DNA of 16,439 nucleotides from the IMG/VR virus record IMGVR_UViG_2657244940_000012. One strand, 5' to 3'. This document shows positions 1 through 6,000 of the stretch, piece after piece. Source of the stretch: a virus (lineage: Duplodnaviria; Heunggongvirae; Uroviricota; Caudoviricetes). The position numbers are program-made. Within the stretch, counting starts at the first letter, position 1. Each line of letters starts with the position of its first letter.

Positions 1-3000
1 TACAGCATTGTGCCCGGTTCGGGTTGTGTGTCTGTCATATCCGTCACCGGTGACTCCGGCTGAATATCACCATTTTCCGTGGTGACATCTTCCGCCTGTG
101 GTTCCGGAAGCAGTTCCGGGGATGGTTCCGGCTGTGCACCAAGCAATTCATCCAGAATTGAATCCACTTCTGCATCAAGACGCTCTTCCAGATTCTGGCG
201 GAGTTTTTGTTTCAGGACGCTTCTGACTTCTTCAGAGCGAATGACTTCCTTCACTGCCTCAGCAGTGACCAGTTGTTTTATATCTGTCATGAGATTTTCT
301 CGTTGAAAGGGGTTATTAAGAAGGTTGTTCCGGAATGAGTGGGGCTTCTGTTTTTGCTCCGGCTGACTGAGTGGCGCTGATTTTCTCAGCGGCCCTTTTG
401 TCAATCTGTCTGCGCCAGAAGTCGCGTACTGCCCTGTATCCACCTGAAAGAAGATACAACACACAGACCACCGTACAGAAGTACAGCATTAACTGGTTGA
501 TGAATGTCATGGTTTATTACCGTTACTGTTGACAATGAGAACTGTTTTCATTTAGAAATGATTGATGTCGAAAGCATCCTTTCGTTAGATTCTCCATTGG
601 GATTACCTCCGCCAGTCTCCATTCCTGTTGCTGGCGGTTTTTTTTCGTCTGTTATGCTGCTACGGCATTCACACCAACAGTAAGACTTTCAATCAGCACA
701 GGGTAAGTTGCCGCATTTCCGGTAATATCCGTAATTGCCAGCGCGTTGGCCTCAAAGGCTGCATTCGTCCATCTGGTCAGCGTAAACGGTTTTCCTGCTG
801 CATTATCAAGCACCGGCGTGACGTTCAGCGAGCCACCACCCGGGAAGCGGAAAGTCAGCGTGTGCCAGTCGTGATCGAACGGACCATAACTACCAAGCCG
901 CTGTGATGTGGTGTTTGCATGATACATCACATTGATGTTTGTTTTATCAGTCTGCAGATAGAAGGCCGCAATATAACCCTCCTCTGATTCCGCTCCCGGC
1001 CATCCACTACCGCGCCAGTAAATACCCGCAGAATATTGATTTGCAGAAGCATTGAGAGATACATCATCGGGGATTTTAAAGCGCAGCGTGATTTCACCGC
1101 CGTTATCGAACAGCTCCTTCCCCTTACCGGCATCAATTGCGTGCGATACTTTCCAGGTCTTTTTCTGTGCAAGACCATTTTCTGGTTTTTCAAGACGAAG
1201 GGCTTTTTTACCTGAACCACTGTCACTGACCAGCGTGTTTTTGACATCTGTCAGCGTCCAGCCCTGCGAAGCCAGAGCGGCATTTTCCGCATTCACATCA
1301 TAAGCCAGCACTGACTGTATCTTTGTCGGGACAACGGCTTCAGGCTGAGTATCGCCACTCTCCTGTGCTGGTTGCGATACGCCTCCGCCTGAAGAAACCG
1401 CGGCTTTTGTCACTTTCCCGGAAACAAAATCTGCCACTCTGCCCACATGCAGAAGAATGGCTGTTGCCAGACGGTCGGAAATAATTCCGCGACGCGCCCA
1501 TGAACCAAAGTGGGTTTTACGATCGGATGTTGTCCAGCTCTTCGCATCCGTTCGTCCACCGGAACCATAATACCCGATAGCCGGAATATCCGGGTCTTCT
1601 GACGGTTCATTGGTCCCGACTTTCTGACCATTGTCATCCATCATAAACGGCACAAAGAAGATATTTTTACCGGCTTTGGTTTTGTATGCGCCATAGACGG
1701 CATCGTATTGCGCTGAATACGTCTCCTTCCAGTAGTACGTCGTGTCACCACAAATCCAGGGCACCAGAGAAGGAGAAGCACCAGCGCACTGACCGGATAC
1801 TCCCGCCAGGTCAGAACGGTATTTTTCCACCATGGCATCAAACATGGCGGGCTGACTGGCGTACGCTCCCTGTTTTAAATCAAACTCGCCCTGCATCCAG
1901 ACAACACAAAGCAGTATGTTTTTGGGGTTTGCCTTCAGCGCGGCCTGAGTGCGTGTCAGCAGGTCTTTATACAACGGCTTATCAACGCCCCATCGTTCAG
2001 ATTTATCCGACGCTCCTGAACTTTCACTGAACGTTCCGTCAGCACCGGCTGTAAACGCAGAGCCACCACGACAGCACGGCACTAACAAAATACCCGCATT
2101 TTCCGGCATAAAGGGCAACAGCTTTTTGGCAATATGCAATCCCTGTCCGACACACCCATACTGCTCTGCGCTGGCTTTCGGATGAGAAAAACGGCTCAAA
2201 TCCTGCACATCATGCAGGCAGTGGTCCGCCGGAATGATGTCGTTATATGCACAGGCCGCATCACCCGGTGTCACCGTACTGCGACGCGCCAGCTGTTTAA
2301 TACGCGGGTCCGGACGGTCATATGTCTCCGGCAGCGGCAGGCCTTCACCATACGCCATGCCGTTTGACTGTCCGGCCAGCGCAATGACAAAGTAATATTC
2401 TGGTTCAACAACAACAGTCCGGGTACCATCTCCCCCCGGTGAAACTACCGGAGAGGTCATATCCCCTTCAGCGACTATAGCCTGGATAAATTCAGCACCA
2501 TAACCCGCGTTTGAGATAATCGGACTACCATAGGGTTGCCAGCCTTCCTTCAGTTTTTGCGTCAGTTTTCCTGCGAGGTCTGACGGCGATGATGCCCTGA
2601 CCACGTCATAGTGTTTAAATGCCATTATTCCTCCCGGCAGGGATAGTGTATGCAATCAAGATAAGGTGCGGGCTGACGTCAGTCATGGACAAGGGTTCAG
2701 AAACAGGAGGATGACTACAGCCCGCAATACGAAAAAGACCATACAGTTGCGCAGAGTGATTACTGTCGGGTATTATTCGCCAGCTGAAAATTGATCACTT
2801 CACGTTTTGTTGTTTATTCCTTGCCACCCGCGCTTCCCGGCGCGGGCTTTTTTTTATCCAACAAGAAAGCCCCTCCGGAGAGGGGCTGGAGAGTAGCGCT
2901 ATGTACCGTTCATGCATGGTGCCGGGTGCCTCCCGGTGAGTTCAGTATCAGCACCTGAACCCGCACCAGAAAGGATAAGGGGTGTGACCAAACACCTGTC

Positions 3001-6000
3001 GCTGATATGCCCCTCCGCACAGGGGGATTCACCATGCCATATTTTTTTAACAAACTTCCCGCTGGCCAGACAATAATCGCCAGCCTGAATTGTGAGTAAC
3101 GTGGCATTTTACGGGAAAACTGTTTTCTGCAGTAAAAAGGCCCGCCGGAGCGAGCCTGGAAGGATAGCGGTCATGTGATGCCGGTTTCCCGGTAACTCAG
3201 CATCGGTATCTGAGTCAACGTTTTCTCTACTGGGTCATTTCCGATACGTTCCGCCTTCCGGCAGACTTTCATCACGTCAGAAAATATAGCACCCTGAGTA
3301 ACAGGACAGTACTCAGAATTCAGGAAACTGTGACACATCCTGCACAGAAAAGCCCCTCCGGAGAGGGGCTGAAGTATAGCCTAATTTCTGTCTGTCGCAT
3401 GGTGCCAGGTGCCTCCCGGTAAATTCAGCCTGGCTACTGAATTTGCATGTTCGCTGGATCATACACTTTGCCAGATGCCCCGCCGCTTAGGGGGATTCAC
3501 CATGCAGTTTTTTCTAACAAATTCTCATCCGGGCAGACAACATTCAACTGACTTAATTGTGAGGTATGTAACATTCCTGTTGAACGGATACAAAAAAAGC
3601 CAGCCACCAGGGGAGGCTGGCAAACTCGTAGAGCAAAATGCTGTTACGCAAACTTCGTTACAGGGTTATCCTGCAATACTTAAAATATACAATATTTAGA
3701 AAACTAATAGTGCCATATGATATTTTTAAGATTTTGTTATTAATTGCGGTCGCACCTTCCTTTCTGTGTACTTTCCGTATAGCTCACAGGATTCTGGGTA
3801 CAAAAAAACCCGCGCATCGGCGGGTTCGGCTGCGTGGCAATGTAACCACTCTTATCATGATATGCAGATTTTTACGTACGTAAAATACTTTTTTGGCATC
3901 CCACTTTATTCAGGTATGGAATCAAACAAGAGGACCGGGGTTCTACGACGCTTTACACCACCTCGGGCGAGGATTTTCGAGCTCTTTTTTTACCACATAA
4001 CAATGTATTCAGTCGGCGTTGTTTGGGGCTTCTGCATGAACGACACCAGCTTTGCGGCCTTTTCTTATTCCCACAAATTCTGAATCCGAATTTTTTCTCA
4101 ATTTCCTCATTAGATATAGCGACTTTCCCGCATAGGGGGCAAGTATGCTTTTTATCACAACCACTTTTCAATAACCAAATTAACCGGCGGATTAATGGCT
4201 TGATATCATAGATGTTTCGCAAATCATCGTCATGATCGATTTGCGCGTAACTTATCTTCTGTAACATATCTTTCTCCTCCAGACACACCAGGACTCCTTG
4301 TATGGCGTCCCGGGATGTACGCATTCTGGTGGCAAAAAGAGATATTGATGGTAATGTTTGCGAATCTACGTCCTGGTGAAATGAAACAAAATTAGCCAGC
4401 AGAAGTAATTCTGAATAGTTTAACTTTAACCTGTTCTGGTATTTCAAAAGCTCTTTGAGGATAACGAACCAGTCAATGCTTAAAATATCATCACTCCACA
4501 GAGACAGATCATTGTCTTCCGCCTCCAGAAAATCTTCAATGTCCATTTTGCCCCCTGTTCATTGTTGTTGTATCTCTGCGGTTAAACGGTAGATAACTCT
4601 TACGTCCTTGTCCTGTAAAGTAAATAGCATAACGTTCACAAATTGACATACTTCACATAGTGAACGACAAGCGCCTGCTATCACAGGCGCTGCACATATC
4701 TGTCCATCTCCAGCCGAACATCCAGCATCATCAGCATTCCTTCAATAACACCTTCAGCTTTTTGCAGCCGCTTTCCGATAGTCCCATCAGAGCATTCATG
4801 TTTTCGCGCCAGTGACATAAACGTCATCCCCCGCACGTAGCAATCAACCAGCAACTCATGCAAATCACTGTTGTTTCTGTTAAGGCGGGCCATACACCCG
4901 CATATAATCATCGCGTCATCATCACAGCACTGTGGACGTGATTTTACTTTTTCGGGGATCAGCCCCTTAAATCCGGCAGCAATGGGCGACCAGCTCACAT
5001 CCTCATGATTATTTGCCACCCATGCACCCCAGCGTTCAAGCACCTGCTGAATATCACGCATCAGTAGCTTTCCCCTTATCCCATCCACGGTGAACCATAA
5101 GGACACCGTTGACGACGGCGTGCCGTTTGCCTTCTTTATCACCGACATATTTTCTGACCGTAGCACGATTACAGTTCAGTTTTCGTGAAACTTCAGTCAT
5201 ATTGCCTCGTGCCTGGATAAGCAATTCCGGTATTGTTTGAATTGTGGCGTTCATATGTTCTCCAGTTCGGTGATTTTTATCCCCACTCTACCGCCAGGCA
5301 CTTTCACGCCGCGAATTACGCGAATGTCATCGAATTGCACGTCGTCTTCCGCAAATCCGGCGTGGATAAGAGAGTCGAGTAAACCTTTCAGGATGTTATC
5401 GAGGTCGCGACGGCGGGAATCTGGTGGTTCAGCAATAATTGTGATGCGAAGTCGTGATTTAGTGAAAATGTCTAATCTGAGTTGCCGGATGATTTGCTGT
5501 ACGTCTTTTCGGTATTTCTGGCCTTTATCGCTGATGTAGTACTGGCTTCCCCGTCTTCGCCAGTAGGTATTCACCGTCGGCGGCAAGGGAAGCACAAACT
5601 CATATTCATTCATGACTTAATCTTCCCCTCCTTCAGCAATATCGCCAGCGTCCTGATCACGCCTTCCAGGTGGTAAAGTCTGGCGTCGTTGTTGTCGAGA
5701 ATGCGAGTACGGCGATCGATTTCATTATGGCAGTCACTACAGGCCCATGCAGCCAACAGATCATCTGGCTTTGTTCCCGTTCCGCAAATTCCAGCCATTC
5801 GGTAATGCGCCAGAACTGTAGTTTCAGGGTTGCCATTGCATACGCCATAAATCCGTACCTGGCATTCTCTGCCGCGCGCTTCTTTGCGTAGGTTTGTCAT
5901 CATCTTATTCCTCATGCAGTAGGCTATCCGGAGTGACAATTAAATCTTGCTCGACGCCTTAGCCACCGGATATCCCACAGGTGAGCCGTATAGTTGAAGG

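Follow-up and report, generated by a model that had tools for sequence, protein, structure and literature searches.

The locus examined here raises the question of what three similar, structured elements encode that lie one after the other in an apparently empty part of a prophage late region. The window, that is the whole 16,439-nucleotide (nt) stretch of DNA analyzed (IMG/VR virus record IMGVR_UViG_2657244940_000012, Caudoviricetes), matches a lambdoid prophage of Escherichia coli UPEC-245U/190328 (NZ_CP049845.1) with 99.9-100% identity. The late genes of this prophage are located on the minus strand, and the three elements, designated B, C, and A in their order along that strand, sit inside a 1.3-kb gap without annotation between an open reading frame (ORF) of 197 amino acids (aa) and an esterase gene. 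A first-pass annotation, made from the sequence alone, had described them as three paralogous minus-strand elements, each ending in an intrinsic terminator, and had offered late-operon small RNAs (sRNAs), processed leader fragments, or terminator modules as possible roles. The elements are tandem copies of an sRNA family of lambdoid and Shiga-toxin (Stx) prophages, STnc100 (Rfam family RF02076), and very probably represent sRNA genes, each independently transcribed, on the same strand as the late operon in a lambdoid prophage of uropathogenic E. coli. The original observation was therefore correct yet ordinary, because this family had already been catalogued.

The covariance-model search proposed in the first-pass annotation revealed the family, which had not been recognized there. 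In Rfam cmscan, copy A (3066-2857, minus strand) and copy B (3533-3342, minus strand) matched RF02076 with 138.2 bits (E=6e-31) and 145.1 bits (E=1e-32), respectively, in both cases over the full length of the model (positions 1-206 of 206) and beyond its curated gathering threshold of 47 bits. Copy C (3306-3131, minus strand) aligned to the same model from end to end with 30 bits (E=2.5e-4 in a 1.4-kb search), a score also obtained for this element in two other genomes, and since 30 bits is below the threshold, it is filed as a divergent paralog rather than as a curated member. PasD2 and PasD1, sRNAs of enteropathogenic E. coli (EPEC) whose sequences were taken from strain E2348/69 by published coordinates, are similarly distant from this model and likewise sub-threshold (41 and 38 bits). 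Repeat finding and a terminator scan, together with Rfam, bear out the description as paralogous, terminator-bounded elements: A and B share blocks of 32 nt at 91%, 39 nt at 85%, and 67 nt at 70%, a three-copy repeat family covers the terminator block (2861-2897, 3131-3167, and 3344-3380), and 12 terminator-like sites were found in 2.2 kb compared to 2.1 expected, a terminator-like hairpin on the minus strand being present in every copy. All helices of the family occur in A and B, i.e., a closing helix, a 5' CCCCU/AGGGG hairpin, an 8-bp internal stem, a CCGGG/CCCGG hairpin, and the terminator, and copy C retains the 5' hairpin, the internal stem, a CCGG hairpin, and the terminator.

The units have a common layout. 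A putative sigma-70 promoter (TTGnnT as -35 element and an extended -10 element) is followed by a conserved structured core, whose outer boundary is the 8-bp closing helix GCAUGGUG/CACCAUGC, a helix that the first-pass annotation had not noted. Inside it lie the 5' hairpin, a second, variable hairpin, the internal stem with its covariation, and the CCGGG/CCCGG hairpin; in copy A, GCAUGGUG (3037-3030) pairs with CACCAUGC (2921-2914). The core leads into a variable single-stranded linker of 17-26 nt and then into the intrinsic terminator. The features of the three copies are as follows:

3540-3535 and 3519-3511, minus strand: putative promoter of copy B in a conserved block (-35 TTGTCT, 18-nt spacer, extended -10 TGtTAGAAA)
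3342-3505, minus strand: STnc100 sRNA body of copy B, predicted transcript of ~160 nt from GCAUGGUG to the terminator U-tract
3421-3444, minus strand: internal stem AAAUUCAG/CUGAAUUU of copy B (Rfam, covariation counts, fold)
3351-3370, minus strand: intrinsic terminator hairpin of copy B (terminator scan)
3283-3291, minus strand: putative extended -10 promoter TGcTATATT of copy C, read from the sequence
3131-3277, minus strand: copy C, divergent STnc100-like paralog, predicted transcript of ~145 nt
3193-3217, minus strand: internal stem UGACUCAG/CUGAGUUA of copy C (Rfam match, fold, RNAalifold)
3138-3157, minus strand: intrinsic terminator hairpin of copy C (terminator scan)
3073-3068 and 3052-3044, minus strand: putative promoter of copy A in a conserved block (-35 TTGTCT, 18-nt spacer, extended -10 TGtTAAAAA)
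2857-3037, minus strand: STnc100 sRNA body of copy A, predicted transcript of ~180 nt
2938-2962, minus strand: internal stem GGGUUCAG/CUGAACUC of copy A (Rfam, covariation counts, fold)
2868-2887, minus strand: intrinsic terminator hairpin of copy A (terminator scan)

Is it the RNA structure that is conserved in these units? The internal stem lies exactly where compensatory base changes had first been noticed and corresponds to the helix <<<<-<<<...>>>->>>> of the Rfam consensus. It is formed by GGGTTCAG/CTGAACTC in A (2962-2938), by AAATTCAG/CTGAATTT in B (3444-3421), and by TGACTCAG/CTGAGTTA in C (3217-3193); between A and B, G-C is replaced by A-U at two positions, and between A and C, U-A is replaced by C-G at one. 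For a broader comparison, a 24-nt pattern within the CCGGG hairpin retrieved 120 IMG/VR prophage contigs with 70 distinct sequences, which were aligned with B, C, and PasD2 (alignment A2, 73 sequences), and the five-helix structure taken from copy A was scored over this alignment. A 16-mer (GCATGGTGAATCCYCC) run against 596 Gb of genome contigs was too short a pattern and gave chance matches in unrelated phyla only. Over the whole structure, 93.5% of the cells of A2 were paired compared to 36-51% when the 3' partners were slid by 1-3 columns, and both-side changes were present in 18 of the 34 pairs. The observed pairing values were reached by none of 500 shuffles, a control which overstates the significance because the 73 sequences are related, and the slid-partner control is the fairer one. 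The best-supported helix is the internal stem (both-side changes in seven of eight pairs, 96.2% of cells paired), whose variants among the homologs include GGAUUCAG/CUGAAUUC, GGGUUCGG/CCGAACUC, and GAGUCAUG.../...CAUGCUC. Helices 1, 3, and 5 show covariation, and the CCGGG hairpin is uninformative in this respect because the search pattern lies inside it. Joint folding, which had also been suggested in the first-pass annotation, recovered the same stem: RNAalifold, applied unguided to eight diverse members, predicted the internal stem, the 5' hairpin, and the terminator. The compensatory nature of the stem changes, the failure of which across prophages had been named beforehand as a possible refutation, thus holds across the 73-sequence alignment.

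The folds of the single copies add to this picture in an uneven way. The centroid fold of copy A contains the closing helix, the 5' hairpin, the internal stem, the CCGGG hairpin, and the terminator, and the minimum free energy (MFE) fold of copy B has the family architecture (z=-2.9), the z score of copy C (-2.5) being moderate, as is that of B. Copy A, with z=-0.56, is not more stable than its shuffles, so that folding stability alone is no evidence and the case rests on covariation. As read from the sequences, the closing helix of copy C, ACGUGAUG/CAUCACAU as against GCAUGGUG/CACCAUGC, differs by three compensatory changes and one mismatch. That selection acts on RNA structure and not on coding, as had been proposed, is supported by the covariation and by the fact that overlapping ORFs are not conserved between A and B. 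ORFs of 65 aa (2910-3107, minus strand) and 55 aa (3171-3338, minus strand) do exist over the copies, the annotation pipeline PGAP calls a 'hypothetical protein' over some homologs, and ribosome footprints occur on some copies of strain EDL933 (ribosomal coverage value up to 3.2), all of which could be taken to mean that the elements encode small proteins. However, the ORFs differ between the paralogs, B stopping after 14-25 codons in the equivalent frames as read from the sequences, the indels between the copies are not multiples of three, the conserved ATG is not preceded by a Shine-Dalgarno sequence, and the substitutions keep the pairing and follow no codon pattern. We consider a coding function to be extremely unlikely.

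If the elements are RNA genes, from where are they transcribed? The array is surrounded by the following features:

4682-5062, minus strand: antiterminator Q (PF06530)
3953-4546, minus strand: 197-aa ORF annotated in RefSeq as 'hypothetical', weak Pfam match to DnaD_N (33 bits)
3594-3884, minus strand: PR'-like late promoter (3884-3857) and StxS-like leader of ~258 nt ending at tR' (3623-3604)
~2795-2854, plus strand: convergent sRNA-like unit of uncertain start, strong terminator at 2827-2846 and T8 after it
652-2625, minus strand: SASA/DUF1737 sialate O-acetylesterase of the NanS-p type, downstream late gene

The region 3895-3595 of the window shares ~97% identity with the sequence that follows Q in the Stx2 phages F004 and Nil3. 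In Stx2 phages, PR' transcripts end 258 nt downstream of the promoter at tR' and are processed into the sRNA StxS (PMC7547250), of which a near-identical copy is present at 3850-3594, directly upstream of the array, in a prophage that lacks stx. Given the positions of PR' and tR', late-promoter transcription in a lysogen should stop before the array. The 258-nt definition of tR', which is based on Term-seq (PMC7547250), was used because the tR' annotated in the GenBank record of Nil3 maps to an AT-rich stretch and not to a hairpin; that annotation was rejected. A second hairpin terminator (3827-3806) is located within the 5' part of the StxS-like leader.

Judged from their sequences, the copies appear to have a sigma-70 promoter each, and because of this they are read as independent sRNA genes and not as leader fragments. 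The -35 and -10 positions upstream of the copies are at least 90% conserved in A2, and the predicted starts (~3037 for A, ~3505 for B, and ~3277 for C) fall at or beside GCAUGGUG. The 5' end of PasD2, as published on the basis of RNA-seq and northern data (PMC8550237 Table S6), aligns to the homologous GCATGGTG, which is the predicted start position, and RpoD ChIP-exo signals were reported at STnc100 promoters of Salmonella LT2 (PMC10794520). The notion that A, B, and C are instead fragments processed from the PR' late transcript, i.e., leader or 3'-untranslated-region-type sRNAs without promoters of their own, was among the roles first suggested, and it has precedents in StxS, which is made in the same region by RNase E processing of the PR' leader, and in PasA, which is reportedly cleaved from a longer transcript. 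It conflicts with the PasD2 5' end and the RpoD binding just mentioned and is very unlikely because tR' terminates the PR' transcripts of a lysogen upstream of the array and a conserved block of -35 and extended -10 elements precedes every copy.

Late-region sRNAs as the role of the elements are thus supported by structure, covariation, and family membership, and homologs of the single copies have been detected as RNAs. In strain EDL933, 11 STnc100 copies are transcribed, and STnc100_4 was confirmed by northern blotting (PMC5331693). EcOnc27/sRNA103, which is encoded downstream of stx2B, was crosslinked to Hfq and confirmed by northern blotting (PMC4104026, PMC7873438), and PasD was validated by northern blotting and is found in chimeras of Hfq RIL-seq, its seed UGUGAG being located in the single-stranded linker beside the terminator (PMC8550237). 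Discrete Hfq-associated RNAs of ~160-210 nt are characteristic of STnc100, and by analogy to these published homologs, A, B, and C would be expected to yield RNAs of this kind. The array also has the location typical of the family, in the late region and on the strand of the late operon, with PR'/moron cargo on one side and the esterase and lysis genes on the other.

Several points, in addition to the restrictions on the shuffle control and on the CCGGG hairpin given above, weigh against independently transcribed sRNA genes of this family. The -10 elements TAAAAA and TAGAAA are weak without the TG extension, and a generic promoter scan missed them. The U-tracts of the terminators are short or interrupted (TTCTTGTT, TTTTTACT, and TTTCTGTG), which makes read-through between the units possible and means that Hfq binding at the 3' end is not guaranteed. 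Copy C is sub-threshold on the Rfam model, and its MFE fold lacks the closing helix. Transcription in this strain and in other array-bearing genomes is deduced from homologs, and the effects reported for STnc100 comprise overexpression phenotypes (fimZ, espA) and in silico pairing only.

What could such a set of RNAs do? In a lysogen, each unit would be transcribed from its own promoter into an Hfq-associated RNA of 145-180 nt, as its homologs suggest, and each RNA would pair in trans with mRNAs via the C/U-rich linker just upstream of the terminator, which corresponds to the position of the seed in PasD (PMC8550237). The linkers end in ...GCUACUCUCC in A, ...GCUAUACUUC in B, and ...GCUAUCCUUCC in C, with CUCUCC, ACUUC, and CCUUCC, respectively, as candidate seeds that would be anti-Shine-Dalgarno-like. 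Because the three linkers differ, the three copies probably have different target sets. Hfq dependence, seed location, and targets of the copies in this strain are in all these respects assumed by analogy with the published relatives. The terminators would keep the constitutive sRNA promoters from driving the esterase and lysis genes during lysogeny, and after induction, Q-modified RNA polymerase starting at PR' would have to read through tR' and the three terminators into these genes. A constitutive promoter upstream of lysis genes needs a terminator which only the Q-modified polymerase ignores, and this may be why each unit ends in one.

The same arrangement of four minus-strand terminators in series between PR' and the esterase gene could also mean that the main effect of the elements is in cis, that of a cascade of terminators or insulators in which the three terminators following tR' silence the esterase and lysis genes unless a Q-modified polymerase passes, with the RNA as a by-product; StxS shows that a terminated late leader may be a by-product that later gains a function. 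Such a primary cis role is nevertheless unlikely. A bare terminator needs neither a conserved, covarying multi-helix core of 120 nt nor a conserved promoter, and discrete RNAs of the homologs, bound to Hfq, accumulate without induction. The suggestion of the first-pass annotation that the elements are terminator modules which make downstream cargo Q-dependent describes a side effect at most, because Q dependence is already imposed by tR'; termination in cis is compatible with trans-acting sRNAs as a secondary role.

How does the array relate to the sRNAs known from this region? STnc100, also designated EcOnc27 or sRNA103 in enterohemorrhagic E. coli O157:H7, has the same helices as A and B and the same late-operon strand. 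It occupies the same slot downstream of PR'/moron cargo and upstream of a NanS-p-type esterase and lysis genes, and is likewise paired with a convergent sRNA-like unit. In the Stx2 phage F004, the order is Q, tRNA genes, stx2AB, STnc100 (annotated in GenBank as a noncoding RNA; 208 bits), the convergent AsxR, and the esterase, and Stx phages thus have one STnc100 copy in the corresponding interval, just after stxB. The array differs by the tandem order of three copies (B-C-A) where STnc100 elsewhere occurs once per prophage, the 11 copies listed for EDL933 all being far apart, by its 3' linkers, which are unlike the common EcOnc27-type linker, and by the absence of stx cargo in the prophage. 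According to Tree et al., the moron site downstream of PR' is occupied by pairs of convergent sRNAs in eight Sakai prophages, and the StxS-like unit upstream of the array together with the convergent unit downstream of it matches this published layout. StxS itself also comes from this late region and binds Hfq, but it arises when the PR' transcript terminates prematurely and is processed by RNase E, and it is unrelated to A, B, and C in sequence and structure.

PasD1 and PasD2 of EPEC E2348/69 have in common with the array the promoter layout, the GCAUGGUGAAUCC start, the 5' hairpin, the internal stem, and the position between Q and a sialate esterase, and with copy C in particular the sub-threshold score on the STnc100 model. 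PasD has its own 3' half, terminator, and seed, and in alignment A1 no PasD-type 3' half with the seed UGUGAG beside a GGCUGCGC terminator was found in A, B, or C. An assignment of copy C to PasD was rejected, only the 5' half and the stems being common. Pas sRNAs, including PasD, are reported as a single copy per prophage, and Zhu et al. 2026 concluded independently that PasD and STnc100 share an ancestor.

The anti-sRNAs AsxR and AgvB are encoded in prophages at this moron site, facing STnc100-type genes in convergent pairs. They differ from the copies in being encoded on the opposite strand, in their length of 51-60 nt, and in acting as sponges, and A, B, and C do not match them. The convergent plus-strand unit at ~2795-2854 faces copy A in the slot which AsxR holds in strain 83972 and in phage F004. 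The AsxR/AgvB models RF02703 and RF02702, which represent a conserved 42-nt 3' region, found no match in 2600-4000 at E values up to 10, with F004 and 83972 scoring 88 and 63 bits as controls. Assignments of this unit to AsxR/AgvB or to Esr41 were rejected on the basis of Rfam and alignment. It resembles the EPEC RIL-seq candidate E2348C_1409.E2348C_1408.IGR.

How widespread is the array, and is it maintained as such? The survey of copy number in related prophages that had been recommended along with the original observation showed it to be recurrent. The order and spacing B-C-A are repeated in strains 83972 and M217, the array also occurs in phage PhiR5_2, and 640 of 5426 complete E. coli genomes (~12%) contain it at a coverage of at least 80%. 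At least one STnc100-like match is present in 2744 of these genomes, i.e., in half of them, at up to nine places per genome. In E. coli M217 (L247 2990-3325), the gene that follows copy A, on the opposite strand, codes for the anti-adapter IraM, and the esterase gene is reduced to a DUF1737 fragment, which indicates that the array persists in decayed prophages.

Copy C, which had been called degenerate, is not simply so, because it is conserved in 673 of the 5426 genomes, almost only within the B-C-A array. It occurs as two alleles (at least 99% and ~86% identity), between which the upstream flank is scrambled and the identity extends from just upstream of the extended -10 element to the terminator. 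The allele differences are mostly located in the 5' hairpin and in the terminator, with the pairing kept, and include one double compensatory exchange of U-A for C-G. This pattern fits a functional unit, but mosaic recombination could give the same boundary. The sharp difference between the flanks of a conserved body is also one of the observations in keeping with the proposal that the repeats at the moron site are primarily conserved DNA linker sequences that promote homologous recombination and the exchange of modules, with the tandem copies as scars of unequal recombination. The family is a mosaic, with promoter types, cores, linkers, and terminators combined differently from one of the 73 homologs to another, and Zhu et al. 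invoke recombination around the esterase gene to explain the linkage of the sRNAs. DNA-level recombination does not, however, require compensatory changes that keep RNA helices, and the homologs are expressed and Hfq-bound; we regard this explanation as highly improbable and retain that of sRNA genes.

What may be new about the array is confined to its conserved tandem order and to the middle paralog with its sub-threshold score. STnc100 is contained in Rfam and is one of the bacterial sRNAs annotated most often; pipelines of the Bakta type label it automatically, and some GenBank phage records carry the label as well. A search of a literature collection in which eight papers mention STnc100 found no paper describing the triple B-C-A array, and only this fixed array and copy C are possibly undescribed. 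We tentatively suggest, at chances somewhat below even, that the cassette is an undescribed functional unit, namely a three-gene sRNA array with three different seeds, in which C would be driven by its own extended -10 promoter and represent a separate STnc100/PasD-like subfamily as yet unannotated. If so, the Hfq network of many E. coli that do not produce Shiga toxin, including uropathogenic and asymptomatic-bacteriuria strains, would gain three new regulators with these RNAs. As the array holds a conserved paralog that is missed by current models, prophage sRNAs are undercounted in extraintestinal E. coli. A statistical link has been reported between variation in the STnc100/EcOnc27 region downstream of stx2 and the risk of hemolytic uremic syndrome, and an understanding of the STnc100 family could therefore matter for virulence, to which the window adds no direct evidence.

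The gene order around the array, according to RefSeq annotation and Pfam, is ninB, ninE, rusA, ninH, Q, the 197-aa ORF, the gap, esterase, holin, lysozyme, and Rz. The interval had been described as lying between Q and the esterase, but its direct upstream neighbor is the 197-aa ORF and not Q. In Stx phages, Q ends directly before PR', whereas here this ORF lies between the two and appears to have been inserted there, separating the antiterminator gene from its promoter. Likewise, only this family had been said to be present in the interval, which is incomplete in view of the StxS-like PR'-tR' unit and the convergent plus-strand unit. The absence of a cloverleaf was confirmed, since ARAGORN found no tRNA gene in the window and Rfam no RF00005 match, and ileZ-argN-argO-type tRNA genes are accordingly missing.

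Some further features of the window are of interest beyond the array. A plus-strand hairpin (CCGCCAG...CTGGCGG followed by T8) at ~569-650, with a TTGACA -35-like hexamer before it, converges on the 3' end of the esterase gene, where PasA is located in EPEC. BLAST found no similarity of this hairpin to PasA, and its Esr41 score of 19 bits is weak and non-significant. On the minus strand, Rfam reported isrK (7415-7489, 76 bits) and the adjoining C4 antisense RNA (7304-7388, 75.5 bits) above threshold. This pair (7304-7489) is located just upstream of a gene for an ORF6N-domain protein (6577-7251), and the region looks like a P1/P7-type C4-ant immunity-like module within a lambdoid prophage. Finally, a RelE/ParE-family toxin and a helix-turn-helix protein, as annotated in RefSeq, are encoded as a plus-strand pair at ~7687-8215 amid the minus-strand genes of the nin region.

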